NCBI GenBank assembly: GCA_000002435.2 | Contig: CM018793.1 | Strand: one strand, 5' to 3' | Length of the DNA: 64,000 nucleotides | Source of the DNA: Giardia intestinalis | Lineage: Eukaryota | In this document: piece after piece, positions 12,672-45,679 of the stretch | Position numbering within the stretch: the first letter of the stretch is position 1 | How the letters are laid out: every line of letters begins with the position of its first letter | Translations under genes and position numbers: made by a program | Notes under the pieces: generated by a model | Told to the model about the DNA's origin: nothing | The model's database searches: none | What the model saw: only the letters and a program-made list of their open reading frames with translations

Positions 12672-13361
12672 TTAAAAATAGAGCTTTTGGGCTTTTATTG
12701 CCACCTTGCGGCAAAGGGGGCACTCTATCGGCCTTCCGCGGATCCTTGCTTGCTCATCGAGGACATTAGCGCATTGTTCGCAGTAGGCGGCATGTCCACA
12801 GGGCATTAGAACGTGCGTGCGCTCCCTGTCTAGGCAGATCACGCACGCAGGCATGGTTACCTTATCGGGCAGACTGCGGCGAAGCATAGGGCGTATTCCG
12901 GCTGCTCGGCGCTTATAGCGCGCACAGGCCTTGCGGACGCGGCTATTTTCCTTCATCAACGCGCTTATCTCGCCTGTGAGCTCGTCGATGCGTTCCTCGG
13001 CTGCGTCGGCGACGTCTGCGGCCGCTCTGTAGTCGAGGATGGCCTCCTCCAGCTCCCTGTTTAGCTTTTCGCACTGTGCGTAGTATGTCTTAAGGCGAGC
13101 CTCGTAGTTCTTATGGAGGATCTCCTGGTCGAATTTTGACGCTTTTAGTGTCTCTCGCAGCCTCTTCAGCTTGAGGCCGCGGTGCGAGGACTGGGCGATG
13201 GCGTGGCGCAAAAGCTGCTTATCGGTCATATCAAGGTCCAGCTCGCTTACCGTGGTAGACGAGCTGGAGACCTCTTCCGATGGAGCGGGGCATGAGGGTC
13301 GCGCAGGAAGGCCTGCAATGCCAGGAAAACTCCCTATAACGTCAAAGACAGGCGTAATCAT
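12672..13361 (-). CDS. RING-finger (C3HC4) coiled-coil protein, putative E3 ubiquitin ligase (element A)
   Basis: C-terminal CVICLDRERTHVLMPCGHAAYCEQCANVLDEQARIRGRPIECPLCRKV = C3HC4 RING; paralogue in element B at 32008-32607. Confidence 0.65.
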   Translation of the reverse strand: MITPVFDVIGSFPGIAGLPARPSCPAPSEEVSSSSTTVSELDLDMTDKQLLRHAIAQSSHRGLKLKRLRETLKASKFDQEILHKNYEARLKTYYAQCEKLNRELEEAILDYRAAADVADAAEERIDELTGEISALMKENSRVRKACARYKRRAAGIRPMLRRSLPDKVTMPACVICLDRERTHVLMPCGHAAYCEQCANVLDEQARIRGRPIECPLCRKVAIKAQKLYF

Positions 13362-13512
13362 CTAGACGGGTCTTTTTCTCAATATACAATTTCACTTTAA
13401 AATGCTTTGCCGGCGTATATTATAGTGTAACATAGCAAAGTAGTGTAAATAAGAAAAATGGCGCCAAGGACCTCATAGCGCCTGGAGGTTAAAGAAGTGT
13501 AAATCAGCTCAT

Positions 13513-13995
13513 TTACTCATCGCTTTCCTCCTGGAAGTCCTTCGGTATGAAGCCGTGCTTGTAATAGAAGTCTTCCAGGGCGAGGCAGGCCTCCAGGTGG
13601 TCGCGGGCGAGGTCGTGGCGTTGCTCCGAGCTGTAGACGATCCAATTGCCAAGCATGTCGCGCCGCTTGAAGATCTGGATCGCCTTCAGCTGGAGGAGCC
13701 CGTCCGCCGCGCTGAGAACGTCAGGAAGGAGCCTAGAAAAGAAGTTGCTGCACCGTTCTACGTATAGATCGATGAGCATCAGGCGGTTCTTGTTGATGCG
13801 GGCGATCTGGGCCGCCCGGAGCCCGTTGCGGCGGCGGAACGAGCTTTGGCGTAAACCCTTCCGCGGCACCCGTTCGGTCCGGAGGCGGTGGAGCTGCTTC
13901 GTGTACGCGCTGATCAGCTCCCAGAGGCGCCCCTGGGACTCTGCCGCGTCGCACACCAGGATGGCGGGAATGTGGCCGAAAGCTGGTAGGAACAT
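13513..13995 (-). CDS. Hypothetical protein (160 aa), conserved between elements A and B
   Basis: ORF 13513-14187 trimmed to Met65 (MFLPAFGHIPAIL), which aligns with the start of the B paralogue (MPYLPPFGFVPEIL); conserved GAAAGAAAAAG upstream motif. Confidence 0.45.
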   Translation of the reverse strand: MFLPAFGHIPAILVCDAAESQGRLWELISAYTKQLHRLRTERVPRKGLRQSSFRRRNGLRAAQIARINKNRLMLIDLYVERCSNFFSRLLPDVLSAADGLLQLKAIQIFKRRDMLGNWIVYSSEQRHDLARDHLEACLALEDFYYKHGFIPKDFQEESDE

Positions 13996-14067
13996 TTGAA
14001 GGCTTTTTCTTTCGATTTGAGAATCGAATTTAAAGTGTTTGCAACATATACGCCGCACAAAAAATAA

Positions 14068-16542
14068 ATGACGACGAGCTACATCCAGAGCGGCGGCGCA
14101 AGCCTCGAAATCGACCCGCTGACCGGCGAACTCACGTACGAGGACTTCCTCAACGCCATTGAGAAGGCCGAGCTGGAGCCTATCCAACCACCCAAGATCG
14201 ACCTGGGGAGCCCGTATTCCATATTCGGCATTCCCCTTGTCGATCAGATGTTCTCAGACGTCCTCGAGAACATCGACCTCTTCAAACAGGACATCGACAA
14301 GTTCATCGACTACCTCAAACGGAAGATCAAGCTGACGATCAACTGGACTGTGGCGCTTGCCGGCGTCACAACGATCTCGGCGCTCATCGGCGTGATCACC
14401 AGGGAAATCACCAACGCCATCTTCAACATAAAGCGAAAGCAAGAGTGGGAGGACCTCAACGACCCGGACGCTAAGGCAGAGATGATCCCCCAGGCAGACA
14501 TAGAGGCCAAGGAGGAGATCAGCGAAATGAGCGGGGAGGACATCGAACCGCCAAGTCTAGGAGAGATCGAGGAGCCCGTGCTCGATGAAGAAGGGAACGA
14601 GATGTTAAACCCCGACGGCACAACAATGATGACAACCCGCATCGTAGAACTGCCGCGGGACATCTCGGACCAGTACGACCCGATCCCCGAGCCGGTCGAT
14701 CTCTCCGAGGAGCCTCTTACGCCCGAGCTGGCCGAAGAGATAGAGGAGAACGAGGGCGACATCACCCTAGACGTAATCAATAAGCTTATGATGGAGTTCG
14801 ACCCGCAGGGGGTCACCCACGAGCAGAACAACGAGTGGCTCATCGATAGAGGGGTCTACATCCTGCATATCCCCCATCTGTTCCTCAAAAGGGAATGCCT
14901 CCCAGGCGGAATAAGAGCCGGAATCATAAATGGCGCCTGCGGCATGATTAACGGCGTCGTCATGCCTGCCGTGGCGGAACGCTATTCGCGCACGTACAGG
15001 CGGAGAGTTCACGTCTGTCCCTACGAGGAATCCAAAACGCATGCAGACAAGGAGCAATCCCCGGGCGGCAACCTCATGAACGTCCACTGCTGCATGTGCT
15101 TTGAAAAGAAGCGTGTTCTTAAGAAGGGAGATCCCTTATGGGCCGCCAATGTCTGCACCTGCATGCCGCCCTGCGAGTGTCCGTGCCACGAACGCTCGAC
15201 GAGACACATAAGGTATCTGAAGAAGACCTGCAGATCGTTTGCTCAAGAGGCTCCGTTGACTGGCTGGTGGGTTGGTTCTGATTGTATGGGAGACAGTCAT
15301 AAAACATATGAAAAAGACGATTATAACTGTCGATTCTACCCTTATATCTGCTATGAAAATGAAACGTCCGAACGGATAACAGACAAGCCAGAAAGTCGGT
15401 TTAATGTAATTCAGATCTGCCCGTTCTGCCAGATAATGTATGCCTACATCAATATCGTCGGAAAAGGCTACAAGCTCCACCGCTCCAACACAGAGGTCTA
15501 CATCTTCTTCACGAAGGGCGCCAACTCGACGCTGCTCCTCGGCGAGCCGGCGAAGTATTTGGTAACCGGCCCGGCGACCAACAAGACCTTCGACTATATC
15601 AATAAAAACGATAGCGCCTTCGACGACGCCATCTGGGGCCGTAAACCGTTATTCGAGTACCAGGGGCCTATCCAATGCAAGTGCTCCATTGGTCGCCCCA
15701 TATGCACGGCCGCCTTTAAGGGTAATGCCAACGAAGCACACACCAACCTCGTCACATATATAAAGGGCCACGCGCAGAAGATCAAGTACATCTACATGCC
15801 GGACTTCGAGGTGACGGGCGGCGATCCCTGGTGGTACAACGACCAGCACGACTACCAGTCGATCAAGGACCTCTGCATCTTCGACGGCATCCTCGAGCAC
15901 AAGGTCCCCGAGCACGTCTACCGCTTCTACGAGTACCGCCGGCTCCTCGACAAGACGTGGTTCCCGCGGCTCTACCAGGACATCTACAACCAGCTCACCA
16001 AGGACTATCCCGACATTCCCTCAGGCATGGACCATCCCACGGCCAAGAAGTGGAAGAACTGGAAGGCCTGGATGGCGATCGACAAGTTATTGAACGACCT
16101 CATCCCCATCCCGGAGATCTACCCGGAGCTCGCGGACAACCCGAATCCCCTCTTCGCGCGAAAGCCGGTGGGCTGGGAGCAGGCCAGTGAGTGGGGGACA
16201 GAGGCCGTGCCGTACTCGCTTCGCCTTCCCGAGGAACTCCAGCGCATTAAGGACTACCTCATACTGCTGGACAAATACTACCCGGGCTGGAGAGCGTTTC
16301 GCGATGAGCACGATCCGGGCTGGTGGAGCGACTTCTGGCGGCAGATCCCCGTCATCGACAAGGACGCGCGGACGACCATCTTCCTCTACAGCGACCTCCG
16401 GATCGACAGGTATAAATTCGAGATCACCGGGGAGCCCGAGTGGTGGCGCGACTTCTGGGGCCCCACGATCAAGGACAACCTCCCCGACCCCGAGAGACCC
16501 CGCTCGTACCAGGAGGTCCTCGAGGTCGTAAAGGATTACTAA
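14068..16542 (+). CDS. Cys-rich protein with one predicted TM helix (824 aa), element A
   Basis: N-terminal SLEIDPLTGEL, hydrophobic VALAGVTTISALIGVI, acidic stretch, Cys cluster CCMCFEKK...CTCMPPCECPCH; paralogue 33776-36205; start abuts AAAAAATAAATG. Confidence 0.6.
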   Translation: MTTSYIQSGGASLEIDPLTGELTYEDFLNAIEKAELEPIQPPKIDLGSPYSIFGIPLVDQMFSDVLENIDLFKQDIDKFIDYLKRKIKLTINWTVALAGVTTISALIGVITREITNAIFNIKRKQEWEDLNDPDAKAEMIPQADIEAKEEISEMSGEDIEPPSLGEIEEPVLDEEGNEMLNPDGTTMMTTRIVELPRDISDQYDPIPEPVDLSEEPLTPELAEEIEENEGDITLDVINKLMMEFDPQGVTHEQNNEWLIDRGVYILHIPHLFLKRECLPGGIRAGIINGACGMINGVVMPAVAERYSRTYRRRVHVCPYEESKTHADKEQSPGGNLMNVHCCMCFEKKRVLKKGDPLWAANVCTCMPPCECPCHERSTRHIRYLKKTCRSFAQEAPLTGWWVGSDCMGDSHKTYEKDDYNCRFYPYICYENETSERITDKPESRFNVIQICPFCQIMYAYINIVGKGYKLHRSNTEVYIFFTKGANSTLLLGEPAKYLVTGPATNKTFDYINKNDSAFDDAIWGRKPLFEYQGPIQCKCSIGRPICTAAFKGNANEAHTNLVTYIKGHAQKIKYIYMPDFEVTGGDPWWYNDQHDYQSIKDLCIFDGILEHKVPEHVYRFYEYRRLLDKTWFPRLYQDIYNQLTKDYPDIPSGMDHPTAKKWKNWKAWMAIDKLLNDLIPIPEIYPELADNPNPLFARKPVGWEQASEWGTEAVPYSLRLPEELQRIKDYLILLDKYYPGWRAFRDEHDPGWWSDFWRQIPVIDKDARTTIFLYSDLRIDRYKFEITGEPEWWRDFWGPTIKDNLPDPERPRSYQEVLEVVKDY

Positions 16543-16543
16543 T

Positions 16544-19500
16544 TCACAAGCTGTAGTTCTCGACCGAGCTCCTGGCCCAGTACCAGATCGCCACCCGCTG
16601 GCCGCCGCCAATCTTGCCGATGCTTTTATCATATGCAAAGCGTAGCGTGACGTTGATGTAGCTGTCATTGGAGTTGCCTTCGCGATAGTCGTTCCAGGCC
16701 ACGAAGACGCGGTCGTAGGACGTCACCCAGACGTCGTAGGGCACAATCGAGACGATGCAGTCGTTGCTCTTGCTGATGGCGTCGCTGGGGAGGCTGGACA
16801 TGGAGATCCGCATGAAGCCGTTGCCGTCCGTCGTCTGGCCGGGGATCCACTTCCGGACGAGGTACTGGTACTTCAGCTCTCGGCAGACATAGGTCAGCTT
16901 GTTTGACTGGGCGTTGAGCGTCGCGATGCTGTCCCGGTTCAGCCGGATCGAACTCTCAAAGCCGGAGACGGTCGACTCGAGCCTACTGAGCCTGCTCGAT
17001 GCGGAGCTCAGCGAGCCCTGGAGGTTGCTCACCGTGACTTTGAGGGAGGCGATCTGGTCCCGGTTCTGCCCAACGGACCTCTTGAGAGTCGTTACTTCGT
17101 CTGTCCATATGGCGATGGTATCTGCGTTGTTCTTGATCCTGGTCTCGTTAGCCCTAATTTTGCCTTCGCAATTGGCCACCCTTGTTGTAAGAGCTGATAG
17201 AGCGGTTTCTTGCGTCCTAGTCGTGTCCCAGAGCCCCCGTATGTTGCTCTCGGCGGCGTTGACCCGCGTCTCGAGGGCCGCATAGTCGGTTGTATTGCTC
17301 TTGAGGTCGTTTATGCTAGTCTTCATCTCAGAAATGTCGCTCTCGTTAGTCGCTATGCGCTCTTCATAACCAGCGAGTCGGCCAGACAGAGTGTTGTAAC
17401 GGTCCGATATCTCTGTAATAGTCACATTGAGTCTCTCGATGGTCGCCCGGTCCTCCTCCCTCTCCCTCTCGAGCGCTGCGACCCGGGCCGACAGACCTGA
17501 CACGTCCTGAATAACCGCAGAATCGTCCTTTGAACCCTCCTTGGACTCTAACGCATCGAGGCGCTCGGTAAGCCTTCTGATCAGCTCGTCTTGCGCCACA
17601 ATGCGCTCGGTGAGGAGCCTCCTCTGCTCGGCCGACCGCTCCTGCTCCTCTTCGATCTGGGCTTCCAAAGCATCGTTGCGGGCAGAGGTCAAACTGCTGA
17701 TGGCCTTAACCTGGTACTGCAGCTCCGCGACGAGCTCCCGCAGGTAGTTGTAGGCGCCCTCGAGCTCGGTCCGGATCCCGCTCATGTCTATGATGCCGCC
17801 GACCGGGTCTGTGAACGAGATCCCGTTCCGCTCGAAGAATTGGACAACGACTGTCATCAGGATCTCGATGCGGTTCCGGAAGTCCATGATGTCATTCTGG
17901 TTCTCGGTGAGTCTCTCGATCCGCTTGGCGTGGACCTTCGCCTCCTCCTGCAGCGCTTCGATGGCTACTTGGTCCTCTCCGGCGATGCTCTGAAGCACCT
18001 TGATGTGATTCTTCGCCCGGGCAGCCTCCAGATGCACGAGGGACACGTCCCGGTTGATGTGCGAGAACTCGTTCCAGATAAACTCGAAGCGGTAGAAGAG
18101 GTCGTCGGTCAGGAACTTGTAGATCCTCTTAAACTTGTAATCGTGCTCGTCGAGCCGGTTCTTCGCCTGGATCGCATAGGCAAGGCCTGTGGAGGCGACG
18201 GTCAGGATAGCCGCGTCCAAGGCATAGCCTACGGCCATGTTGATCACGTTGAGCTTCGATCCGATGCCGCCTGTGTTTCCGCCCTTGTTGATTTTGTCCT
18301 GGAGTTTCTTGTAGTCGTTGTCATCGGCCAAAAGCTTCGCCTTGAGGTACTTGACGGCCGCCTGGAGTTTCGTTATCTCGAGGTCGAGCTTCTTGTTGTT
18401 CCGCTCCAAATTCTGGATCTTGGTCTCGTGCTTCAGGGCCCGCTTGCCCAGATAACGCGTCTGGTGCGTGACACGGCCCTGCGAGAGCTTCTTGAGGTTC
18501 TTGATCTTCAGATAGCTGCCCCCGATCTTGTAATTGCCGCCGATGTGCTTGCGAAGTCCGTTGTCCTCGTCTCCGTCTTCGTCCTGGCCCTGCAGCTGGC
18601 GGTAGAGCCACATCGTCTGCTGGTTGACCGTGGCCGCCATGAAATCTGCCCGGGACACGCGGCCGTAGGGAGAAAGCTTCTGGTTGTTCCTGCCAGCCAG
18701 AGAGCCCCCGACCATCTCATAGAGGTACTGGATCTGCTGGAAGAGGGGCTGCTTGCGGAAGTCATCCTGGGAGATGGCGTTCCCTATGCCGATCTTGCCC
18801 TCCAATGCGTCAGGGATGAGATCGTTATCCCTGGTTTTCTTCTTCTTGAGCTTCCGAGGCTTCTTGGGCTTCTGCTCCTTCTTCTTCTTCTTGAGCAGCG
18901 CCTTCTGGTCCGCCATCGGTAAGAGCTCCTCTCGGAAGGCGTAGTTCCCCATCATCATCCACTGGAGGGCGACGATCTTCTGCACGATCGTGAGCCCCCG
19001 CATGTACTCGGACTTGTTCGTCGTGTCGCGCATGTACTCCTCGGGCTGGAAGTTGTTGTTAAAGCCGACGATCGGGGCCGCCTTCTTCATCGCCTTCGTG
19101 AGCTTCCCGCCGTTGAGGGCGATGTTGAAGATGCCCTTCGGCGTATTCTTGAAGCCGATGATCTCCTCCATGAACTTGACAAGAAATACCAGACACGGGC
19201 CCTTCAACGGAGACATCCCATCTAACATGTTTCCGTTGTAGTCTTTGATCTCGTAGTTGTGGGCATTGCAGTAGTACCGGAGAGCACTGGCCTTGTCTTT
19301 TTCGGTCATGAGCTGCGTCGCGCAATGGACGGTCTTCGGACCAAAATATCCCTGAAGACGATGAGTCAGATTTATGTTCAGATTGCTTCCCAAGAGAGCC
19401 CTCCGTTGATCGTCTCTCAAAGCATTACGCTCGCAGAACTCCTTGAGCACATTGAAGTAATACTCTGACGCAAAGCTAAGCTGATCGACGACCTTCTGAA

Positions 19501-19561: not shown

Positions 19562-19622
19562 CTATTTTAATTTCGCAACCATTTAGAATCAGAATCTCGT
19601 TTCGGAAAATAAAATGGTGTAA

Positions 19623-20145
19623 ATGGCTACTCTCAAAGACCTTCTGAACACCAATCCAATCGGCATGAGCGAGGAGAACTACGCGCAGCTGCTGCGCTCC
19701 CTCGAGACCCTCAACTACGGCCAGCTGCGCCAGTACGTGCTGGCCCGCCTCAAGCCCCTCGTCGACAACGTCCGCAAGCATCTCCAGGAGGACCCTGTCG
19801 GCTCGATCGACCAGGTCCTCGACTTCCAGGACGCCTTCTGCACCAAGGAGCTGATCCAGACCGTCCGCTGGAACCTCGCGCAGTTCCAGGTGAACGCGAA
19901 GAACCCCCGCAAGGCGCCGGCCGTGCGCAGCAAGGAGGCGACGGAGCTCTCGTACGCGACGGACTACAGCTTCCGGCGCATCGTCTACCCGATCGTCGCA
20001 GACCTCGCGAAGATCCTCTACCTCCGCGCCGAGGAGGCGAACGTCCGGAACCCGAACAGCCTCGTGCGCTACATCCCGCTCCTTATCATGTTCAACCAGC
20101 AGAACGCAATCGGCTACCCGCCCCGCGTCGCCTTCCTCGTGACGC
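19623..20145 (+). pseudogene. N-terminal 174-codon fragment of element-A pPolB, truncated by insertion of element B
   Basis: MATLKDLLNTNP...RVAFLVTP aligns residue-for-residue with residues 1-176 of the intact pPolB at 39160; reading frame runs into the TIR of element B after codon TP. Confidence 0.85.
20140..20145. repeat. Target-site duplication GACGCC (left copy)
   Basis: GACGCC immediately flanks both ends of the 26,015 bp insert; the uninterrupted paralogous pPolB has a single GACGCC at the corresponding site (cgtGACGCCtgccgtc). Confidence 0.8.
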
Positions 20146-21074: not shown

Positions 21075-21076
21075 AT

Positions 21077-22543: not shown

Positions 22544-22555
22544 TATTTTTTAATT

Positions 22556-36205: not shown

Positions 36206-36213
36206 TGAATTTA

Positions 36214-39090
36214 CTAATAACTGATGTTTATAGCCGGGTTCTTTGCCCAGTACCAGATCTTCACCCGGTTACCTGAGCCAAGGGATCTCGAATTCGACCA
36301 TGTTAATCGTAGGTTAATGTACGAATCGCTAGTATAGTCCGACCACGAGACTATGATTGTGTCATATGTACTAACGCGACAATCATACGCCTGGATCGAG
36401 ACAATGTCGTCATTGGATCTGCTCTGCATGTCGCTCGGAAAGTCCGCGAGATTCAGTCGCATGAACCCGTTGCCGTCGGTCGTCTGACTCGGCACAAAGC
36501 TCTTCAGCAGACACGGCGTCTTGAGGGCGTTGCATATCCGCTCTGAGTAGCTGCACAGCGTCTCACAGTCAGTAATCCGGCTCAGCTGATTAGAGAGCTG
36601 AGAGGTGTTCTGAGCGATAGAAGCCAGAGCACCCGTGATCTTACCAGCTTGCTGACTGACGTTGTTCGAGATGACCTGCACCTGGTTGTAGAGCTGGTTA
36701 TAACAACTAATGTGCGAGTTCAGAGACGATTGGACACCGCTAATGCGATTCGTGTTCCCTAAGACAGAGTCCCAAATGCCGCGCTCATTCGACTCAAGCG
36801 CATTGATGCGAGTCTCCAGAGCAGGCACATTTCCAACATTGCCATCAAGACGAGTAAGGCTCTCTCGAATCTCGCTGATGCTCTGGTCGACTGCTGTCAT
36901 GTGGCGGTCATGTGCATCTAAGGCGTCCTGCGTAGAGTCTCTCAAGCTCTCTAGTCGACCGTTTATCTCTCTCGCTGAATTGTTAACTGCATCGATAGTA
37001 GTCGCGAACTCTGTCGTTGTCCTCTCTAACGAACCTATCTTCACCTCAGATGCTTCCACTGTCCTGCTCATCCGAGACAGCGATGAAGAGAAGGCTGCAT
37101 TGTCTGTCTCAAAGACGCCTACCTTTTCAGCGAGCCTTCGGATGATCTCGTCCTGTGCAGCAAGGCGTTCTTCAAAAGCGCTTGCCTTTGCGCGCTCCTC
37201 TTCTAACTGTCTCTCAAGAGAGTCGATACGCGCTGCCGTTAATTGAGCGCCCACCTTTGCCTCGACCTTCTGCTGGTCGATGAGCTCTCTGAGATAGTTG
37301 TACGCGCCCTCGAGGTCTCTCTTGATCGTCATAGCATCGATCAGACCTCCCTCGAAGTCGGGAACTGAGATGTCGTTCCGCTCAAAGAACTGTGCGACAA
37401 TGGTCATCAGAATCTCCATGCGGTTCCGGAACTCCATGAGACTGTCCTGGTTACCCTCGAGCACGCTCACGCGGTCCTTCGTTTCATCTAACTGAACGCG
37501 GTCATCGTCAGTGTGACTCGTCAAGTCCCGAATACGCTCTTCAGCTCGCTTTACTTCCAAATGGGTCAAGGTCATATCATCGTTTATGTGTGAGAACTCA
37601 TCCCAAATGAACTGGAAGCGTTTATAAAGATCATCAGTCAGAAACTTGTATATCTTGCCGAACTTATAGTCATGCTGGTCGAGGCGGTACTTCGCTTCCA
37701 CTGCATATGTAAGGGCTACCGCAGCGACGACGCCAAGACACGCGTCTATCACATATCCGGTAATCAAGTTAATCAGATTCAGCTTCCGGAAAAGACCGCC
37801 CCCTGCGGCGATAATAGTATCAAACTCGCCGAGCTTATCCTTCATCAGATCTTCCTTCGTGAACGTCTTCTTCTTGATGAGATCGATCTGGCCCTCGGCG
37901 CGCTTGATGCGAGCCTCTAGAGTCTTCCGCTGCTTCTCGAGACGGTTGATCTTTGAATCGGCTTTCATTGCGTGCTTAGCAAGATAACGCGTTTGATGTG
38001 AGATGCGTCCCTTGCTAAGCTTCTTGAGACTCTTAATGGCTGTAACGTTACCGCCGATCTTGTAGTACTTTCCGAGGTGCTTGCGAAGACCATTGTCCTC
38101 GTCGCCGTCCTCATCGAAGCCCTGAAGCTGTCGATAGAGCCACATTGTCTGCTGGTTGAGCGAGGCGGCCATGAAGTCTGCACGAGACACGCGACCATCG
38201 GGAGAGAGCTTCTGATTGCTGCGACCAGCAAGCGACCCGCCGACCATCTGATAGATATACTGGATCTGCTCGATGACCGGTTGGCTCTTCAAATCGTCTT
38301 CGCTAATAGCGCCCGTCACGCCCTTGATGGAGATATCAGCATCTCTTGCAGCTCGCAGCCCAAACGTCTCAGGCTTCTTTATCTTACGTGGCTTCTTCGG
38401 CTCCTTTGGCTTCCTCTCCTTCTTGAGCTTCTTCTTCTTATCTGTAAGCGGCAGAAGGTCCTCCCGAAAAGCATAGTTGCCCCTTACCATCCACGTGACA
38501 GCAAGGATCTTCTGAACAATCGTCAGGTCGCGCAAATAGTCGAGCTTGTTCGGCGCATTCATATAGTCCTCCGGCTGGAAGTTGTTGTTGAAGCCGACCA
38601 TTGGGACCGACTTGACCTTCGGCTTCGAGAGAGTCTGCCCGGTTAGAGACATCGTATAGAGATCCGCAGGCACAGTCTTGAAGCCCAGTATCTCCTCCAT
38701 GAACTTCACTAGAAACGCTAGACACGGACCCTTCACCGGAGACTCTCCGTCGAAGGCATTGCCGTTCCAGTTCTTGATTTCATAGTTCTCATGATTACAA
38801 TAGTACTTGATGCACTTCTTTCGCTGAGCGGGGTCAAGAAGCTGCACGGCGCAGTGTATTGTCTTCCCGCCAAAGTACCCCGATATGCAGTGAGTCTTGC
38901 TGAGATTCAGGTTAGACCCAAACAGAGCTTTGCGTTCGTCAGGCACTAAGGCACACTGCATCACGTAGTCTTTGATGAGGTTATAATGATACGATGAGAG
39001 TGCGCTGACCTTATCTGCGAACGACTGCATCGACTCTGTCGTCATGAAGACGCCGTCGAGCTGCTCCCTGCGGATGATGAGGTTGTTCAT
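36214..39090 (-). CDS. Large coiled-coil protein (958 aa), possible fiber/attachment protein, element B
   Basis: Paralogue of 16544-19561; MNNLIIRREQLDG; basic KKKKLKKERKPKEPKKPRKIKK tract; long heptad region; C-terminal WYWAKNP domain. Confidence 0.55.
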   Translation of the reverse strand: MNNLIIRREQLDGVFMTTESMQSFADKVSALSSYHYNLIKDYVMQCALVPDERKALFGSNLNLSKTHCISGYFGGKTIHCAVQLLDPAQRKKCIKYYCNHENYEIKNWNGNAFDGESPVKGPCLAFLVKFMEEILGFKTVPADLYTMSLTGQTLSKPKVKSVPMVGFNNNFQPEDYMNAPNKLDYLRDLTIVQKILAVTWMVRGNYAFREDLLPLTDKKKKLKKERKPKEPKKPRKIKKPETFGLRAARDADISIKGVTGAISEDDLKSQPVIEQIQYIYQMVGGSLAGRSNQKLSPDGRVSRADFMAASLNQQTMWLYRQLQGFDEDGDEDNGLRKHLGKYYKIGGNVTAIKSLKKLSKGRISHQTRYLAKHAMKADSKINRLEKQRKTLEARIKRAEGQIDLIKKKTFTKEDLMKDKLGEFDTIIAAGGGLFRKLNLINLITGYVIDACLGVVAAVALTYAVEAKYRLDQHDYKFGKIYKFLTDDLYKRFQFIWDEFSHINDDMTLTHLEVKRAEERIRDLTSHTDDDRVQLDETKDRVSVLEGNQDSLMEFRNRMEILMTIVAQFFERNDISVPDFEGGLIDAMTIKRDLEGAYNYLRELIDQQKVEAKVGAQLTAARIDSLERQLEEERAKASAFEERLAAQDEIIRRLAEKVGVFETDNAAFSSSLSRMSRTVEASEVKIGSLERTTTEFATTIDAVNNSAREINGRLESLRDSTQDALDAHDRHMTAVDQSISEIRESLTRLDGNVGNVPALETRINALESNERGIWDSVLGNTNRISGVQSSLNSHISCYNQLYNQVQVISNNVSQQAGKITGALASIAQNTSQLSNQLSRITDCETLCSYSERICNALKTPCLLKSFVPSQTTDGNGFMRLNLADFPSDMQSRSNDDIVSIQAYDCRVSTYDTIIVSWSDYTSDSYINLRLTWSNSRSLGSGNRVKIWYWAKNPAINISY

Positions 39091-39159
39091 TATTTATTTT
39101 CCCCACTCACACCAACCATTTGAAAGTGGAATCTGTTCTGAGAAAATAAAATGACGTAA

Positions 39160-42100
39160 ATGGCAACCACTAGGGAACTCCTGACCATGCATCCCCAGCA
39201 GATGTCCGAGGACCAGCTCGCCCAGCTCAAGACGTCGCTCGAGACGCTCAACTACACCCAGCTCCGACAATACGTGCTCGGCCGCGTCAAGCCCCTCATC
39301 GAGAACGTCCGCAAGCACATCCAGGAGGACCCCGTCGGCTCGGTAGATCAAGTCCTCGACTTCCAGGACGGCTTCTGGTCCAAGGACCTGATCCAGCGCG
39401 TCCGCTGGAACCTCGCCCAGTTCAGGGTAAACGAGAAGAACCCCCGCAGAGTGCCGACCAGCAGAGCGAAGGAGGCGCTGGAGCTGAACTACATGACCGA
39501 CTACTCCTTCCGGCGCATCGTCTACCCGATCGTCGCAGACCTCGCCAAGGCTCTTTATCTCCGCGCAGAGGAAGCTAACCGCCGCAACACCGACGCTTCG
39601 GTGCGCTATGTCCCGCTTCTTGTCATGTTCAACCAGCAGAACACGTTCGGCTATCCGCCCCGCGTCGCCTTCCTCGTGACGCCTGCCGTCATCACGTTCC
39701 TCCGCGGATGGAAGGTCTTCGCCGACGGAGACGACGCCCACCAGCACTACCTCAACGCGGTCACGAGGGACGCGGCGCAGATCCACGGCGTCCAGTCCGC
39801 AGAGCCTGGCGAGATGCTCTACTGCTTCAACTGGGACCCCATTTTCGCCGGCACAGAGAGCGACCCCGAGAACCCCCGCAACGCCATGTTCTCCTTCGGG
39901 ACGATGTACGAGCCCGTCTTCATCTTCCAGATCCAGATCATCCGCACCAGAGAGGGCCAGCGGAAGCTCATCCACCGCAGGGGAGGTATGGCGCCCTTCA
40001 CGAACGACTCGTTCTTCGACCTCACGCGCTACCAGATCGAGAAGACAGGCGAGGGCTTCAAGAACAGCAAGGACACGTGTTTCCTCTACGCCCTCAAGCA
40101 GAGCGGCGTGCTGAGCGACGACGAGATACGGGCCGCCGCCTTCCACATCAACCAGGCCTCTGTCACCTTCGCGATGATCGACGCCATCGGCAAGCAGCTC
40201 TTCGTCTGCTTCCACATGCACATGGCAGACAGGGTCGTCCTCAAGGGCGCGCAGAAGAACCGCAAGGTTCCGCCGGGCGTCGCGATCCGGAACATCCACC
40301 TGGGCTTCGACTTCAACCACTACTACATCTTCGACGAGAAGCTCCCCTACAGCAAGACGTACGTGAACAACGCAGCCGTCATGATGGAGCACCACACATA
40401 CCCCGCGAACACGAACCTGCGCGAGGTCAACGTCAGAGACACCTTCCACCCGCAGACCAGGGAGCCGACGAAGAAGGTCGTCTTCGGCTACCACCGCGAC
40501 GACGACCCCCATACATGCTCGAGTCGGGACCTCATCCTCTCGCTCCACAAGCAGGGCCTCCTCAAGCCCATCCGCTCCGACAGCCTGCTGGCCATCAAGG
40601 AGTCCTTCATCCGCGAAGAGCACTACGAGGAGGACGCGCTCAACTACTGCGAGGACCAGCTGAAGGAGATCACGCCGAAGAAGAAGACCCAGTCGCCCAA
40701 GGACGTCTGGTTCGCAGACTTCGAGACGACGACCGACGGGGACCAGCACCACCCGTTCCTCCTCTGCTTCCACGGGATCAACAACGTCACGGGGACGTAC
40801 TGGGCGAAGGACTACAACAGCATCGGGGACATGGTCCGAGCGGCCTTCAACCGCCTCGCGATGCTCAACCGGCCCCAGCTGGTGTACTTCCACAACCTCA
40901 ACTACGACGGGGCCTTCGTCCTCCCGTACTTCGACGTCAAGAAGGACAGCATCGTCACCCTCGGGGCGAGCAAGATCATCGCGTTCACGATCCATGTCCG
41001 GCTGAGCGACGACCGGAAGAACAAGCCGATCCCGATCCACTTCCGGGACTCCTACGCCCTGATCACGGCTCCCCTCAGCAAGTTCGGCAAGATGTTCAAC
41101 CTCAACGTGCACAAGGAGGTCCTCCCGTACTCGTTCTACACCCAGGACAACGTCAAGAAGCTGTGCCAGGGCTTCAAGCCGACGCTCGAGGAGTACCTCT
41201 CGTACGAGATCGAGAGCAGGAGGGAGGAGCTCGAGCAGCTGCTCCGTACGCTGCCGGAGATGCTGGTAATAGACAGGGTCGACGCCTTCAAGTACGCCCA
41301 CTACTACTGCGCAAGAGACTGCCACGTGCTCAAGGACGGGGTGATGGGCTTCAGACGCCAGCTCCTCGAGGTCACGGGCATCGACGCCTTCACATCCATG
41401 ACGCTCCCGAGCATTGCCTACAACTTCCTCATCAACGAGAAGTGCTTCGAGGGCTGCTTCAACCTCAACACGGCGCCGCTCCTCTTCGTACGCCAGTGCG
41501 TGACGGGCGGGCGCTGCATGCTCCGGTGCAACGAGAAGCAGTACGTCGAGGGCGAGGTCATGGACTTCGACGCCGTCTCGCTGTATCCGTCTGCCATGGC
41601 GCGCCTCCACACCCTCATGGGCCACCCGAAGATCGTCGACCCCGAGAAGCACGACCTCGGCTGGCTCCTCCGGCAGGACGGCTGCTTCCTCGAGATCGAC
41701 ATCGAGGTCGTCCCGAAGCAGCTCGACTTCCCCCTCATCAACAGGCAGACGGAGAAGGGGAGGCACTTCTCGAACGAGCCGGGCCCGATGTTCGCCGACA
41801 ACATCACGATCGAGGACATCATCGAGTACCACAAGGTCCCGATGAACCGGATCAGGGTCCTCCGGGGCTACTACTACGACGAGGGCAAGAACACGAACAT
41901 CCAGGCCGTCATCCGGAAGATCTTCGAAGCGCGGCTCAAGTTCAAGGCGGAGGGCAACCCGCTCGAGAGCATCTACAAGCTCATCATGAACAGCTGCTAC
42001 GGGAAGAGCATCCTCAAGCCCGTCTACAAGCGGATGAACACGGTCGACCACGCGGGCCTTGAGAGAGAGCTCCTCGACAACTCGGCCGATGTCCTCTGCT

Positions 42101-42756
42101 GGGAGCCGCTCTACGACGGCGGCCGCTTCCTCCTCAAGCAGAGCAAGCCCCTTCTGGAGGCGAACAGCTTCCCGACGTTCGGGGTCCAGGTGCTCTCGAT
42201 GAGCAAGCGCATCATGACGGAGGTGATGGCGACGGCCCAGGACCACGGGCTCCCGATCTACTACACAGACACGGACAGCATCCACATCGACAAGGCGTCC
42301 ATCGAGCCCCTCCGGAACTACTTCCACGCGCGCTTCCAGCGGGAGCTCATCGGGAAGAACCTCGGCCAGTTCCACTCAGACTTCCCCGACAGCCCCTCCG
42401 GGGAGATGTTCGTCAGCCGCTACTTCATCGGCGTCGGCAAGAAGGCATACCTCGACATCCTCCAGGACAGCCAGAACAACATGAGCTACCACGCGCGCCT
42501 CAAGGGCATCCCCGAGCAGGCGATCCTCAACGAGGCCCGGCAGCGCTGCTCCCACAACTTCCTCGGCGGGCTCTACAACCTCTACGCGGACCTCTACAAC
42601 GGCGTGCCCCAGACCTTCAACCTCATCTACGACGGCGCGGTGCGCTTCGTGCGAGACGCCAGCCTCGCCTACCGCTGCAGGGACGACTTCAAGCGGAGAG
42701 TCATCTTCGAGAGGGAGCCCGATGAGCCCCTGAACATATCAAAGCTGATGCAGTAA
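39160..42756 (+). CDS. Protein-primed family B DNA polymerase (pPolB), 1198 aa, with ~520 aa N-terminal extension (putative terminal-protein region)
   Basis: Exo I FADFETTT; Exo II YFHNLNYDGAFVL (phi29 YFHNLKFDGAFII); Exo III YAHYYCARDCHVL; motif A FDAVSLYPSAM (phi29 DVNSLYPAQM); motif B KLIMNSCYGKS (KLMLNSLYGKF); motif C YYTDTDSIH (YCDTDSIH). Confidence 0.9.
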   Translation: MATTRELLTMHPQQMSEDQLAQLKTSLETLNYTQLRQYVLGRVKPLIENVRKHIQEDPVGSVDQVLDFQDGFWSKDLIQRVRWNLAQFRVNEKNPRRVPTSRAKEALELNYMTDYSFRRIVYPIVADLAKALYLRAEEANRRNTDASVRYVPLLVMFNQQNTFGYPPRVAFLVTPAVITFLRGWKVFADGDDAHQHYLNAVTRDAAQIHGVQSAEPGEMLYCFNWDPIFAGTESDPENPRNAMFSFGTMYEPVFIFQIQIIRTREGQRKLIHRRGGMAPFTNDSFFDLTRYQIEKTGEGFKNSKDTCFLYALKQSGVLSDDEIRAAAFHINQASVTFAMIDAIGKQLFVCFHMHMADRVVLKGAQKNRKVPPGVAIRNIHLGFDFNHYYIFDEKLPYSKTYVNNAAVMMEHHTYPANTNLREVNVRDTFHPQTREPTKKVVFGYHRDDDPHTCSSRDLILSLHKQGLLKPIRSDSLLAIKESFIREEHYEEDALNYCEDQLKEITPKKKTQSPKDVWFADFETTTDGDQHHPFLLCFHGINNVTGTYWAKDYNSIGDMVRAAFNRLAMLNRPQLVYFHNLNYDGAFVLPYFDVKKDSIVTLGASKIIAFTIHVRLSDDRKNKPIPIHFRDSYALITAPLSKFGKMFNLNVHKEVLPYSFYTQDNVKKLCQGFKPTLEEYLSYEIESRREELEQLLRTLPEMLVIDRVDAFKYAHYYCARDCHVLKDGVMGFRRQLLEVTGIDAFTSMTLPSIAYNFLINEKCFEGCFNLNTAPLLFVRQCVTGGRCMLRCNEKQYVEGEVMDFDAVSLYPSAMARLHTLMGHPKIVDPEKHDLGWLLRQDGCFLEIDIEVVPKQLDFPLINRQTEKGRHFSNEPGPMFADNITIEDIIEYHKVPMNRIRVLRGYYYDEGKNTNIQAVIRKIFEARLKFKAEGNPLESIYKLIMNSCYGKSILKPVYKRMNTVDHAGLERELLDNSADVLCWEPLYDGGRFLLKQSKPLLEANSFPTFGVQVLSMSKRIMTEVMATAQDHGLPIYYTDTDSIHIDKASIEPLRNYFHARFQRELIGKNLGQFHSDFPDSPSGEMFVSRYFIGVGKKAYLDILQDSQNNMSYHARLKGIPEQAILNEARQRCSHNFLGGLYNLYADLYNGVPQTFNLIYDGAVRFVRDASLAYRCRDDFKRRVIFEREPDEPLNISKLMQ

Positions 42757-42762
42757 ATTTAC

Positions 42763-43794
42763 TTAGCGCTCCATAATCTCCTTGAACCTCCCAAAGGTTA
42801 GAGGCTCAGCATTGAAGAACTTCTTCTTCCTTGCCCACGCAGAGAGACGATCGAAGAAAGCCTCAGACGATATCTGCTTGTCCCCAATGGTAAAGCTGTA
42901 ACGACGATCATGATACTCATCAATATCGAACCAGGCGTCTGTGATCGCAAACTGACGCGTAACAGCAGCTGCCTTTATCAAACAGTACTGGCCACCGCTC
43001 CATATGGTTCCCACATGACCCGGCTCTATCGCGACAACTGGGTTGTAAATGCCCTTATGCTCGAGGAGGAACTCGTTCGTCTGCCTGATCGTGTCAAGCG
43101 CATCGACCTCGCACAGACGATGAGGATCATCCGAGGCCCTGTCCTTGATGTGGTCCTCACAGACAGCCGGGTCGATAGCGAAGCGCACATGGAAGGCCGG
43201 AAGGATGCCTGCGCGGAGCATGTAGTGGTCGATCAGGTAGTGGAGGTACTGGCCTTGCTCCTTCGTGATGTAGCCGTCACTCATCTTGAAGAGGATGAAC
43301 GCGCTAGTAGACGGCAGCCAGCGGTCGAAGATGATGAAGTCGTACTGCTGATACTCTTCGGCAAAACGGCAATGAAGAAGCTGCTTCCCCAGTGCATGGA
43401 CCACCTGCTCCTGGAACTGGAAAGCAAGCTCCCTGGGGTTCTTGTAGTACTCCTCGAGGGTGATGCCTCCGTTCTGTCCAAAGTGGTTGTCTGCCACGGC
43501 CTCCTCGATGATGGTAGCTTCGAAGCCTTGGTCGATCAGGTACTTCTTGAGATGCTTGCAGAAGGTGGACTTGCCTGCGCCGATGGGACCGTCAACAACG
43601 ATGATGCGAGGATCAATGACAACAGGCGGCACAACTCTCGAACTGAAATCGCTGAGCTTCCATACGAGGTTATCGTCCATGTTGATCCCGATGTCAACTG
43701 ACTCCAGAAAGTCTTCGACTGGCCAGTGTGATGATTTACTATCGATGAGGCCTGGCTCAGCTGGCTGGTTCTGGGGCTCGTAGTACTGGCTCAT
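42763..43794 (-). CDS. P-loop nucleoside/nucleotide kinase (thymidylate kinase / deoxynucleoside kinase family)
   Basis: IVVDGPIGAGKSTF P-loop and FDRWLPSTSAF (DRY/ERS-type motif, DRYxxSxxAY); ORF trimmed to MSQYYEPQ, whose ATG abuts GGGAAAATAAAATG. Confidence 0.55.
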   Translation of the reverse strand: MSQYYEPQNQPAEPGLIDSKSSHWPVEDFLESVDIGINMDDNLVWKLSDFSSRVVPPVVIDPRIIVVDGPIGAGKSTFCKHLKKYLIDQGFEATIIEEAVADNHFGQNGGITLEEYYKNPRELAFQFQEQVVHALGKQLLHCRFAEEYQQYDFIIFDRWLPSTSAFILFKMSDGYITKEQGQYLHYLIDHYMLRAGILPAFHVRFAIDPAVCEDHIKDRASDDPHRLCEVDALDTIRQTNEFLLEHKGIYNPVVAIEPGHVGTIWSGGQYCLIKAAAVTRQFAITDAWFDIDEYHDRRYSFTIGDKQISSEAFFDRLSAWARKKKFFNAEPLTFGRFKEIMER

Positions 43795-43867
43795 TTTATT
43801 TTCCCAGTAGTGCACGTCTCAAGAGCCAAACCATTTTAAAGTGAATTCTCCCCACGGAAATAAAAGT

Positions 43868-44122
43868 ATGGCTGGCCACCTTCTCAACAGCAACGGGACC
43901 GCGAAGAACGAGAACAAGCTCTACACCCAGAAGCCGACGCCCTTCTACGACGCGGGCACGGTGCCGGTCCGTCTGTCCTCGGTACCCTTCGAGAGCCGCA
44001 ACGAGCCGATCCGCGTCCAGATCGACGAGCCGCCCAAGCAGCGCCCGCGAGCTGGTCTAGTGCGCACCCGCAAGAGGATGATCCCGAGGAACCGCTGGAA
44101 GAGGAACGGGAACAAGCAGTAA
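43868..44122 (+). CDS. Small protein with Arg/Lys-rich C-terminus (84 aa); candidate DNA-binding/core protein
   Basis: MAGHLLNS...LVRTRKRMIPRNRWKRNGNKQ; start abuts GAAATAAAAGTATG; orthologue at 50366-50617. Confidence 0.45.
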   Translation: MAGHLLNSNGTAKNENKLYTQKPTPFYDAGTVPVRLSSVPFESRNEPIRVQIDEPPKQRPRAGLVRTRKRMIPRNRWKRNGNKQ

Positions 44123-44126
44123 ACGT

Positions 44127-44723
44127 TTACTTCGAGATCTCCTCGAGGAAGCGGTTGAAGGTGTTCGTCTCGGTGGAGGCGTTGAGGAAGCGCTGGATGC
44201 CGTCAGCCCACGCCTGGGCGCTCTCGTCGCTGATGCTGAGACAGGTGGCTGTGTACGTGCGCTTGTTCTTGGGAAGCCTCGAGAGCCTCACGAACTCGTC
44301 TCCGGTCTCCTCGTAGAGATAGAAGGCAGAGCGTGCTCCATCAGAAGCGCGTCTGCAGAAAGCGGTGTAGTGAGGGGCTTGCACGAACTCGTCCTCGGGT
44401 CGCTTGACGAAGCGGAAGACGACGCCCTGCTGGTTGAGCCACTTGCAGAACCAGGAGGTGACTCGCTGATAGTCCTCAGTACCCTCAGCGCACTCTGCGG
44501 TGACTCGACCGAGCAGTCTTCCGACCTGGCCGCAAAAGGACTTAAACGCGGGACTGGACGGGGCGGGAGGATTTGCCACTGGCAGAACGGGCTCGGCGTC
44601 GGCGGTCTGTCGCTGTCGGGTTCTAGAGGCAGACTTCCTATGAGTGGGCTCTCTGGAGGAAGGAATGACATCTTGAAGGAAGGGGTCCTCGGCGAAGTGC
44701 TCTGGTATGAATCCATCTGCCAT
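44127..44723 (-). CDS. Hypothetical protein (198 aa), conserved in A and B
   Basis: Start abuts GGAAAATAAAATAAGCATG; conserved core FKSFCGQVGRLLGR.TA.CAEGTEDY.RVT.WFC.WLNQ.GV.FRFVKRPEDEFV.APHYTAFCRRASDG.RSAFYL.EETG.E.VRLSRLPK. Confidence 0.5.
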   Translation of the reverse strand: MADGFIPEHFAEDPFLQDVIPSSREPTHRKSASRTRQRQTADAEPVLPVANPPAPSSPAFKSFCGQVGRLLGRVTAECAEGTEDYQRVTSWFCKWLNQQGVVFRFVKRPEDEFVQAPHYTAFCRRASDGARSAFYLYEETGDEFVRLSRLPKNKRTYTATCLSISDESAQAWADGIQRFLNASTETNTFNRFLEEISK

Positions 44724-44839
44724 GCTTATTTTATTTTCCTGGGAGCCCTGTAACCAGATCAGATCAGAATTGATTCCTGATCAATTCGGACGAAGCGACG
44801 ACTCCAGAAAAAAAAATAACGCTGACGTGAATTCGATGT

Positions 44840-45679
44840 TTACTTTGCAAACAGCTTTACGATGTCTTCCTTGTCTCCGGCAATGGCCAACGCAAAAACC
44901 CTACCATTATTGATGTCCTTCTCCTTATCTGCCAACAAAGCAGCACAAGCAGCATGGCCATTTCTCACAGCCCACTCGAAAGCAGTACCACGGGCGTTAT
45001 TGCATAACCTGGCCTCCTTATCTAACAACAGCTTGACGATGTCTGCGTAACCACAGGATGCTGCTAGCATGAGAGCGGTCCAGCCGTCGTTATCCTTCAT
45101 GCCTGCCTCCTTCTCCGCTAATAGGTTAGCGCACTTAGTGTGACCCTTACACGCAGCCCACATGAGAGCAGTCCTACCATCTTTATTCTTCATGCCGGCC
45201 TCCTTCTCTAACAACAGCTTAACGCTGTATGCGGAATCCTTGGATGCTGCTATTATGAGAGCCGACCCGCAGCATCTCGCACATATACCGGCCTCCTTCT
45301 TCACTAGCAGGTCAACGCACTTAAAATTAAACTTACTCACAGCCCACATGAGGGCGGTCCTACCGATGACATCCTTCATACCAGCCTCCTTCTCTAACAG
45401 CAGCTTAACGCAGTCTGTATAGCCTTCGGATGCTGCTATCATGAGAGCCGTCAAGCCGTGTCCATCACTCATACCAGCCTCCTTCTCCACTAGCAGGTTA
45501 GCGCAGTTAGTATGACCCTCCCTCGCAGCCCACATGAGGGCAGTCCAGCTGTTGAAATCCCTCAGGCCAGCCTCCTTGTCTACTAGTTCCCTGACGACAT
45601 CGATGTTACCTTGCGCTGCTGCTTCTATGAGATCCCTAAAACCATATCCTGGCGACTTGTATTCTCGATAAGCCTTCAT
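44840..45679 (-). CDS. Ankyrin-repeat protein (8-9 ANK repeats), last gene of element B
   Basis: Repeated G.TALM.AA..GH...V.LLLEKEAG..D units; start codon sits exactly at the inner end of the right TIR (GGAGGAAAATAAAATATG). Confidence 0.8.
   Translation of the reverse strand: MKAYREYKSPGYGFRDLIEAAAQGNIDVVRELVDKEAGLRDFNSWTALMWAAREGHTNCANLLVEKEAGMSDGHGLTALMIAASEGYTDCVKLLLEKEAGMKDVIGRTALMWAVSKFNFKCVDLLVKKEAGICARCCGSALIIAASKDSAYSVKLLLEKEAGMKNKDGRTALMWAACKGHTKCANLLAEKEAGMKDNDGWTALMLAASCGYADIVKLLLDKEARLCNNARGTAFEWAVRNGHAACAALLADKEKDINNGRVFALAIAGDKEDIVKLFAK

Follow-up and report, generated by a model that had tools for sequence, protein, structure and literature searches.

Polintons, or Mavericks, are usually described by a small core of genes encoding a polymerase, an integrase, an ATPase, a protease and capsid proteins. 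Those of protists and animals are 15–26 kb in size and can be inserted into one another, and those of Trichomonas vaginalis and Entamoeba combine a protein-primed family B DNA polymerase with an A32/FtsK-like ATPase, terminal inverted repeats (TIRs) of hundreds of bp with AG...CT ends, and a 6-bp target-site duplication (TSD). Here, we analyzed a 64,000-nt stretch of a Giardia intestinalis WB chromosome (the window, to which all coordinates refer) that contains two related elements, A and B. The polymerase, TIRs with AG...CT ends, the 6-bp TSD and a packaging ATPase were all found in B, and the elements fit the structural definition of Polintons by these features; their size and nesting are likewise those of described Polintons. 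Unlike known Polintons, however, the Giardia elements have a weakly recognizable integrase and no adenain-type protease or capsid domain detected by Pfam, and they carry genes for a deoxynucleoside kinase (dNK), a RING protein and, in lineage B, an ankyrin-repeat protein. Giardia has appeared in this context as one polymerase leaf in a tree (Yutin et al. 2015, PMC4642659). Beyond that leaf, nothing on Giardia Polintons or the cargo they carry was found in the searchable literature, and none of the papers retrieved, which do not amount to a systematic test, reports dNK, RING or ankyrin genes in Polintons.

We consider it likely, with a probability of roughly 0.7, that these genes form a cargo set of a Giardia Polinton family that is kept by selection, in which the dNK would serve element replication, the RING protein would be an E3 ubiquitin ligase, and the ankyrin protein would be a host-derived scaffold. 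As observed, the accessory genes are element-borne, are under purifying selection, and keep their catalytic and zinc-binding residues. Each element carries one RING gene, one non-TK1 dNK gene, one gene for a protein of 198 (B) or 216 (A) aa, and one small Arg-rich open reading frame (ORF); B adds the ankyrin gene. A first-pass annotation of the window had placed RING C3HC4 proteins, a small Arg-rich protein and the 198/216-aa protein in both elements, as we found: the Arg-rich protein is ORFm, with a second Arg-rich ORF (162 aa) present in B and absent from A, and the 198- and 216-aa proteins are homologous. Its "two RING E3 ligases" are right as a count of RING genes overall, but each element has one, not two. 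The ankyrin protein is present in B, as annotated, but is cargo of lineage B only and is not conserved across lineages. The protein identity between A and B, put at ~55–85%, is in fact 39–69% for RING, dNK and 198/216 and 35–40% for ORFm, and only the polymerase is close. Furthermore, A and B do not lie side by side, as had been assumed, but are nested, with B inserted in the A polymerase gene with the TSD GACGCC, and the A copies of the kinase and 216-aa genes, assigned to positions 12672–45679, both lie outside this interval, at 49232–51272.

Accessory genes of the Giardia elements

The gene listed in both elements as a TMPK/dNK kinase was confirmed as to its dNK part, both proteins scoring well above the 27-bit cut-off of the dNK family PF01712 (Table 1). 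Its thymidylate kinase (TMPK) part was rejected, because PF02223 gave just 22.8 and 21.2 bits, under its own cut-off of 27 bits. In an alignment of 14 members, the P-loop G76–K82 (GPIGAGKS/T; GxxGxGKS/T), E104/E105, F134–Q135, D164–R165–W166, and the lid residues R226/R233/E236 were invariant. An AlphaFold2 model built from this alignment had a core with pLDDT of 80–93, a poor segment of ~60 residues at the N-terminus, and a partially modeled C-terminal extension of ~90 residues (pLDDT 37–80). The top Foldseek matches of the model, with probability 1.00, were 8PUU, 1J90, 2OCP, and 2NO9, corresponding to Giardia deoxyadenosine kinase (dAK), Drosophila dNK, human deoxyguanosine kinase, and deoxycytidine kinase, at 18–22% identity and a TM-score on target of 0.69–0.76. 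As modeled, the element kinase thus has a non-TK1 dNK fold.

The A kinase is 50% identical to the B kinase and 74–78% identical to that of lineage E (L007/L008), which is represented by a 24,048-bp contig from 12 samples. Searching the dNK profile against 1.84 billion representatives gave 1,376 matches at E≤0.001, of which only five, all of them family members, reached ≤1e-30. The tier below (E of 1e-29 to 1e-19, 281–325 aa) was largely located on contigs of 22–27 kb, and one of its clusters includes a Giardia DH protein named "Deoxynucleoside kinase, partial"; the element dNK cluster has 20 members, of which the 15 listed lengths are 342–351 aa. On a contig of 26,196 bp (L005), whose dNK cluster includes a Giardia DH protein, the dNK lies beside a protein-primed polymerase 39% identical to that of B. 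On two human-gut metagenome contigs (L001 and L002), a 272-aa dNK with 38–40% identity lies next to an ATPase 61% identical to the B ATPase. Because of this spread over the L005 and L001/L002 lineages, the kinase is the most widely retained accessory gene of the elements.

A scan of IMG/VR detected 67 dNK relatives at 22–42% identity, mainly on large viral contigs and many in giant-virus bins, in line with the first-pass annotation, which took genes of this kind to be more characteristic of large DNA viruses. Similar to herpesvirus thymidine kinase, poxvirus and African swine fever virus thymidine kinase, and iridovirus or giant-virus dNK, the element encodes its own salvage kinase beside its replication gene. 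In contrast to these viruses, the carrier element is only 26 kb long, its dNK has ~60-aa N-terminal and ~90-aa C-terminal extensions peculiar to the A/B/E lineages, and its host has no ribonucleotide reductase, so that such a kinase would be the sole route to deoxynucleoside triphosphates (dNTPs). Judging from homology, the dNK would probably phosphorylate salvaged deoxynucleosides to the monophosphates, which would be converted to dNTPs for the protein-primed polymerase of the element, by the logic that applies to herpes-, pox-, irido-, and asfarviruses with thymidine or deoxynucleoside kinases of their own. Giardia lacks de novo dNTP synthesis and relies on dNK-mediated salvage (PMC11662666), and a role in dNTP supply would make particular sense because salvage is its only source.

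That study counts three dNKs in the Giardia genome, the element-borne ones not being among them; the WB genome encodes at least two further, element-borne dNKs whose reading frames are apparently intact. The element dNK is predicted to share its fold with Giardia dAK (GL50803_17451; the identity of 8PUU as this enzyme is confirmed in PMC11662666) and dNK2 (GL50803_4558), 8PUU being the top Foldseek match (E=1.2e-7, TM-score 0.69–0.72 on target). However, the element dNK profile scored 8PUU at 13.4 bits (E=0.25), compared with 31 bits for Drosophila dNK. A recent capture of the host dAK was therefore rejected, since the sequence similarity is minimal.

Among the closest non-element relatives is P0226, a chromosomal dNK of Giardia muris (245 aa; 74 bits, 27–31% identity) located in an ordinary host neighborhood. 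A search with P0226 did not detect 8PUU even at E≤10. In neighbor-joining trees calculated with and without 20 IMG/VR dNKs, some from giant-virus bins, all 14 sampled element dNKs and P0226 formed one clade at 39–42% bootstrap, and family 1 (A, B, E, GS, and L001) was monophyletic at 98%. The phylogeny of the kinase that had been suggested as a check was thus carried out, with weak deep support that favors neither a host nor a viral origin. In G. muris CM016928 (7131–10738), a gene encoding a 923-aa protein with ankyrin repeats and a zf-C3HC4_3 RING is followed 99 nt downstream by P0226, so that all three accessory domain types of the elements stand side by side in a host locus. A special link of the element RING to this ankyrin–RING gene was considered and rejected, the gene being no closer to it than other host RINGs.

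The RING proteins of both elements exceeded the 27-bit cut-off of zf-C3HC4_3, and their zinc ligands (C173, C176, C188, H190, C194, C197, C214, and C217 in A numbering) were invariant in 15/15 sequences. The profile search gave 15 clusters only, all of 196–238 aa and several on contigs with other element genes, and the IMG/VR scan for RING relatives gave none. Conserved blocks were also found in the N-terminal part (consensus DSTTVDELDL ... RGLKxKRLR) and in the center (ARSLGFDLAKA). Among solved structures, the C-terminal RINGs from XIAP, cIAP1, and cIAP2 come nearest (35–36 bits), followed by MEX3C, MGRN1, and MUL1. As in IAP/XIAP-type E3 ligases, including poxvirus p28 and baculovirus IAP as viral cases, the C3HC4 RING lies at the extreme C-terminus. 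Unlike IAP and p28, the element protein has neither a BIR nor a KilA-N domain, nor any other domain known to bind substrates, and its N-terminal 150 residues consist of a family-specific conserved segment and a helical region. The protein is probably an E3 ligase of the IAP/XIAP type, in which the N-terminal segment and the helical middle would recruit the ubiquitination target. Giardia host ankyrin–RING proteins are about as similar to it (33–40% over ~52 residues) as the IAP RINGs are, so these similarities favor no particular origin. The terms "host interaction" and "ubiquitin-pathway manipulation" in the first-pass annotation are readings of the domains.

The ankyrin protein of lineage B is 84% identical and also 279 aa long in the contig from SRR27755824 (L004) and is shorter and 55% identical in Giardia P15, and its TIR-proximal position is kept in both. 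By name, its best matches belong to Giardia Protein 21.1 and to the ankyrin proteins of G. muris, at 35–45% identity; for Protein 21.1 XP_001703980.1, the identity was 41% with 91% coverage. Like this family, it is made of ankyrin repeats. Poxvirus ankyrin genes occupy terminal genome positions, as does the element gene. It differs from both, however, in that its 279 aa consist of repeats alone, without a kinase, RING, or F-box-like domain, and from Protein 21.1 in its distance from the host proteins and in a repeat number that varies among element copies. Tandem DNA repeats of 186 nt lie within the gene (3.1 copies, 45011–45582), which fits repeat gain and loss. The gene is lineage-specific cargo and was probably taken from the host, as a captured copy of the Protein 21.1 family that would act as a binding scaffold and evolve by gain and loss of repeats.

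The 198/216-aa protein is the most conserved accessory gene. ORFm is also among the genes predicted in L010, L011, and L012. The 162-aa protein of B and its 241-aa homolog in lineage E are Arg-rich and have the motifs TE(V/I)VVTLP..YRRL.RSLG and DKEYIL..LR.WL in common. The interval between the RING and the 809/824-aa genes varies (32608–33775 in B, 13362–14067 in A, and 9027–10000 in L007), A having ORFm only, lineage E only the plus-strand Arg-rich ORF of 241 aa, and B both the 162-aa ORF and ORFm. The 148-, 129-, 181-, 162-, 276-, and 171-aa ORFs and ORFm gave no informative Pfam or PHROG match.

Conservation of the accessory genes and competing explanations

Relatives were collected from Giardia P15 (L003), SRR27755824 (L004, 25.5 kb), and ENA (L012), which are B-like, together with the A-like contigs L010 and L011 and lineage E; several are metagenomic contigs. 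Rates were estimated as the ratio of nonsynonymous to synonymous divergence (dN/dS) by pairwise Nei–Gojobori approximation with 1000 codon bootstraps. Between A and B, protein identity was 39% for RING, 35–40% for ORFm, 46% for 824/809, 49% for 1005/958, 50% for dNK, and 69% for 198/216. The proportion of differing synonymous sites was 0.51 for 198/216 and 0.65–0.74, i.e., saturated, for RING, dNK, 824/809, and 1005/958. The nominal A-versus-B dN/dS of 0.23–0.32, a comparison that the first-pass annotation had called for, is therefore only indicative, and closer relatives were used instead. On unsaturated pairs, dN/dS for dNK was 0.15 (confidence interval (CI) 0.10–0.22), 0.10 (0.05–0.17), and, for A versus lineage E, 0.31 (0.22–0.43). 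It was 0.30 (0.17–0.49) for RING of A, 0.27 (0.15–0.45) for RING of B, 0.29 (0.18–0.44) for the ankyrin gene, 0.13 (0.05–0.28) for the 198-aa gene, and 0.35 (0.22–0.57) for the 216-aa gene. None of the 1000 bootstrap replicates reached 1 for dNK, ankyrin, 198/216, or the within-lineage RING pairs. RING of B versus E gave 0.69 (CI 0.47–0.97), indicating that this protein evolves fast outside its conserved segments.

The accessory ORFs were intact and syntenic in the fetched contigs, with intact copies in Giardia P15, Logan SRR27755824 and SRR23640012, and ENA gut metagenomes, and the recurrence of synteny and full-length ORFs in independent contigs is more than chance would give. The proposal that the genes have been maintained over divergence thus agrees with our results, neither a dN/dS near 1 nor disrupted ORFs in other copies having been seen, and the Pfam searches confirmed its domain assignments for RING, dNK, and ankyrin.

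Divergence is uneven along the elements. Between B and L004, dS was 0.08 for the polymerase, 0.15 for the 198-aa gene, 0.29 for ankyrin, 0.60 for dNK, and 0.99 for the 958-aa gene, a ~12-fold range among neighbors. Such several-fold differences between neighboring genes argue for recombination or gene conversion among co-resident lineages. Likewise, since only the polymerases of A and B are close (88.9% in nucleotides) while neighboring proteins are 39–50% identical, the elements are mosaics. At the P15 locus (ACVC01000219, 1–3650), an integrase and 773-like genes precede the ankyrin–198–dNK–polymerase arm on the same strand, and the terminal 14-mer of B was not found there; this gene order cannot occur within one B-type element alone, and it suggests either a further insertion, nested or in tandem, or an element that has been rearranged.

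Several points weigh against a selected cargo set with the functions proposed above. The functions all rest on domain homology, and the 198/216-aa protein gave nothing usable in Pfam, PHROGs, a PDB profile search, an AlphaFold2 model (pLDDT 52), or Foldseek. Element A is defective, being truncated with a split polymerase, and its genes may be conserved in part because they descend from active relatives, and not because selection acts on them where they now are. By the ratio between B and E, most of the RING protein is weakly constrained. For the ankyrin gene, an identity of 35–45% to host proteins, together with the convergence of repeat proteins on a consensus, makes host capture likely but not proven. 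Selection could also act at the level of the host, through an extra salvage kinase, rather than at that of the element.

A domestication underway, in which the kinase is kept for the benefit of Giardia, with selection acting on the cell for extra salvage capacity, appears unlikely to us. It would accord with a parasite wholly dependent on dNK-mediated salvage (PMC11662666), with the related 245-aa dNK that G. muris has among host genes only, and with the intact kinase of the defective A. However, all lineages examined, whole-element-like contigs among them, keep the dNK in tight linkage with the polymerase and further genes of the element, and in WB the copies are enclosed in TIR-bounded units, whereas the G. 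muris gene stands alone. Considerably less probable is the idea that the accessory genes are neutral passengers, recent copies that have had no time to decay. The defective state of A, the youth of B (its TIRs are 99.6% identical), and the high dN/dS of some pairs (0.93 for ORFm of A versus B and 0.69 for RING of B versus E) could be cited for it. Nevertheless, A and B differ at 51–74% of synonymous sites, yet the ORFs are open and the motifs intact, dN/dS on unsaturated pairs is 0.10–0.35 with no bootstrap replicate ≥1, and the dNK is retained even between lineages with polymerases only 39% identical. Finally, that these are ordinary Giardia genes lying between mobile-element fragments is very improbable, for although they are annotated plainly as "Deoxynucleoside kinase" and "Zinc finger C3HC4 domain-containing protein", the ankyrin protein is similar to members of the Protein 21.1 family of the host, and a G. 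muris dNK of the same clade has a chromosomal host context, all of them lie inside TIR/TSD-bounded units, their order recurs on independent 6.7–25.5-kb contigs with polymerase and capsid-module genes, and a search of 5.8 billion proteins gave element-length relatives only for the dNK and RING families.

Nested arrangement and core genes

The features of the two elements are collected in Table 1. The host genes flanking the cluster are a Rad3-related helicase, GL50803_5183, and GL50803_86680, all exact protein matches to G. intestinalis WB clone C6, in which the sequence was located on a 4.02-Mb contig, and the element ORFs are annotated in databases as "putative DNA polymerase", "Deoxynucleoside kinase", two RING C3HC4 entries, and hypothetical proteins.

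Table 1. Features of elements A and B and their genes in the window
Feature	Coordinates	Strand	Remarks
Element B, complete Polinton/Maverick	20147..46160		26,014 bp; TIRs and 6-bp TSD; inside the polymerase gene of A
TSD GACGCC, left copy	20141..20146		Right copy 46161-46166; hexamer at both B ends within the A polymerase
Left TIR of B	20147..20634	+	Right TIR 45673-46160
Element A, left arm, left-truncated	~11904..20146		171-aa coiled-coil gene, RING, ORFm, 824-aa, 1005-aa, polymerase N-terminus 19623-20146
Element A, right arm	46161..52230		Polymerase remainder 46167-49229, dNK, 216-aa gene, 147/177-aa ORF slot, TIR-like end 51818-52230
dNK of B	42763..43815	-	350-aa ORF, annotated 343 aa; PF01712 58.0 bits; dN/dS 0.10-0.17
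dNK of A	49232..50377	-	381-aa ORF, probable Met start 50296 (~354 aa); PF01712 41.9 bits
RING protein of A, 229 aa	12672..13361	-	zf-C3HC4_3 E=1.4e-12, 47.6 bits; XP_001707461.1; dN/dS 0.30 vs L010
RING protein of B, 199 aa	32008..32607	-	zf-C3HC4_3 E=2.9e-13, 49.8 bits; XP_001707481.1; dN/dS 0.27 vs L012
Ankyrin-repeat protein, lineage B only	44840..45679	-	Ank_2 E=4e-61, 204 bits; next to right TIR; dN/dS 0.29
198-aa protein of B	44127..44723	-	95-96% identical in P15 and SRR27755824 copies; dN/dS 0.13-0.17
216-aa homolog in A	50622..51272	-	Probable Met start 51230 (202 aa); 69% identical to 198-aa; 78% to lineage E, dN/dS 0.35
ORFm of A, ~160 aa from Met	13513..13995	-	Arg-rich, no known domain; homologous to B 33202-33675
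ORFm of B, 157 aa from Met	33202..33675	-	94% identical to L012 copy, dN/dS 0.30
162-aa Arg-rich protein of B	32703..33191	+	Absent from A; 241-aa homolog in lineage E; dN/dS 0.47 vs L012
276-aa protein of B	30585..31415	-	No known domain; 209-214 aa in other lineages; 66-71% identical to L007 homolog; dN/dS 0.55
Protein-primed family B DNA polymerase of B, 1198 aa	39160..42756	+	PF03175 DNA_pol_B_2 E=5e-37, 128 bits (cut-off 25.8); XP_001707488.1
Morphogenesis/integration module of B	21077..30459		488 aa (penton candidate), A32-like ATPase, 129 aa, 181 aa, 872-aa capsid candidate, integrase candidate, 773 aa

The ends of B were defined by self-blastn, in which 20143–20634 is the reverse complement of 45673–46164 over 492 bp with 99.6% identity; because this alignment takes in 4 bp of the TSD per end, the TIR proper is 488 bp. 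The termini read AGTAGTATATATCC...GGATATATACTACT, giving 5'-AG...CT-3' ends. In the window, the terminal 14-mer occurs only at 20147(+), 46160(−), and 52230(−), with one further match with two mismatches at 62550, whereas 0.08 matches are expected by chance. The A polymerase breaks off at the left end of B (19623–20146) and resumes at 46167–49229, and the uninterrupted B polymerase reads ...CTCGTGACGCCTGCCGTC..., with one GACGCC. Since the flanks of B are two halves of one polymerase gene, A is the outer element, and B transposed into the polymerase gene of this older, truncated relative. The nucleotide identity between A 46160–49236 and B 39677–42763 is 88.9% over 3.1 kb, and the right end of A (51818–52234) is 72% identical to the B TIR. 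For the left terminus of A, the window scan did not find the terminal 14-mer; homology to the intact A-like contig L010 ends near 11904, and A lacks the genes that L010 has past the 171-aa gene, namely a 214-aa gene, a 767-aa gene, the integrase, and the major capsid protein candidate.

A perfect (100%) inverted repeat of 2,278 bp brackets the element cluster (9219–11496 and 52358–54635). It holds the 3' end of the host gene GL50803_5183 (6477–9434) and ~2 kb of sequence with 63% GC, and each inner end carries a Polinton polymerase fragment of ~90–120 nt (11410–11530; 52360-44). It could be an inverted duplication tied to the truncation of A, a product of gene conversion, or an assembly artifact. 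Within ~190 nt of the A polymerase (~47280–47463), nine small deletions were observed (eight of 1 nt and one of 2 nt, 10 nt in total) in a region otherwise 95–99% identical to B, through which the 2007 annotation XP_001707491.1 (980 aa) runs as a single ORF; these deletions are probably long-read indel errors of the newer assembly and not true frameshifts. In A, the slot that holds the ankyrin gene in B (51272–51818) contains open frames at 51344–51787 (+, 147 aa) or 51239–51772 (−, 177 aa), which are unrelated to ankyrin and have no Pfam match, and cargo at this TIR-proximal place appears to vary.

Regarding the core genes, the A32-like ATPase of B (22418–23500) matched PF04665 Pox_A32 at 25.5 bits (cut-off 22.8). 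The integrase candidate (27098–28141) gave 20.4 bits with PF00665 rve (E=6e-4, 56 residues covered), under the cut-off of 32.6, and had no match in a PDB sequence search. Neither the 872-aa capsid candidate (24479–27097) nor the 488-aa penton candidate had a Pfam or PHROG match; their placement beside the ATPase is kept across related elements, and the gene order of the whole morphogenesis/integration module is kept in L007 and L010. No ORF scanned had a Pfam match to an adenain-type protease, a search that a remote homolog might escape. The capsid-candidate gene GL50803_16690 is the anonymous "hypothetical protein" locus 3B4-HP used in assemblage A/B diagnostic PCR (PMC3429382), where its element origin went unrecognized, which may matter for copy-number-dependent assays.

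Two large genes of each element (14068–19561 in A; 33776–39090 in B) encode the 809/824-aa protein, which is Cys-rich with a hydrophobic segment, and the 958/1005-aa protein, in which a long coiled coil is combined with a conserved domain at the C-terminus. Of the conserved genes, these two diverge fastest (dS up to 1.3, identity of 66–85% among close relatives). No informative Pfam or PHROG match was obtained for the 773-, 809/824-, and 872-aa proteins, and the 958/1005-aa protein gave coiled-coil noise only. From their sequence features, the 809/824- and 958/1005-aa products may be virion surface or entry proteins.

Implications for Giardia

The conserved accessory set is what sets this Polinton family apart: a compact 26-kb element carries a miniature of the accessory repertoire of large DNA viruses, namely a salvage kinase, a RING ligase, and an ankyrin protein, kept by selection. 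Retention of the kinase plausibly reflects a metabolic gap of the host. A wider proposal, that Giardia Polinton viruses encode a dNK because their host lacks ribonucleotide reductase and that the kinase lineage has been exchanged with the host, is suggested by sequence relationships and is tentative, in our view on the doubtful side. If it were true, the exchange would have gone one of two ways, with a Polinton kinase domesticated by Giardia as a salvage enzyme or a host ankyrin–RING/dNK locus captured by the elements. Either way, the element kinases would have a part in how this human parasite is supplied with dNTPs and how sensitive it is to nucleoside analogues. Given how many 24–27-kb contigs occur in assemblies of isolates and gut metagenomes, one may also ask whether the elements are still infectious Giardia viruses. 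Giardia salvage kinases are being pursued as drug targets, and the element dNKs, if active, could alter dNTP supply, nucleoside-analogue activation, and resistance.

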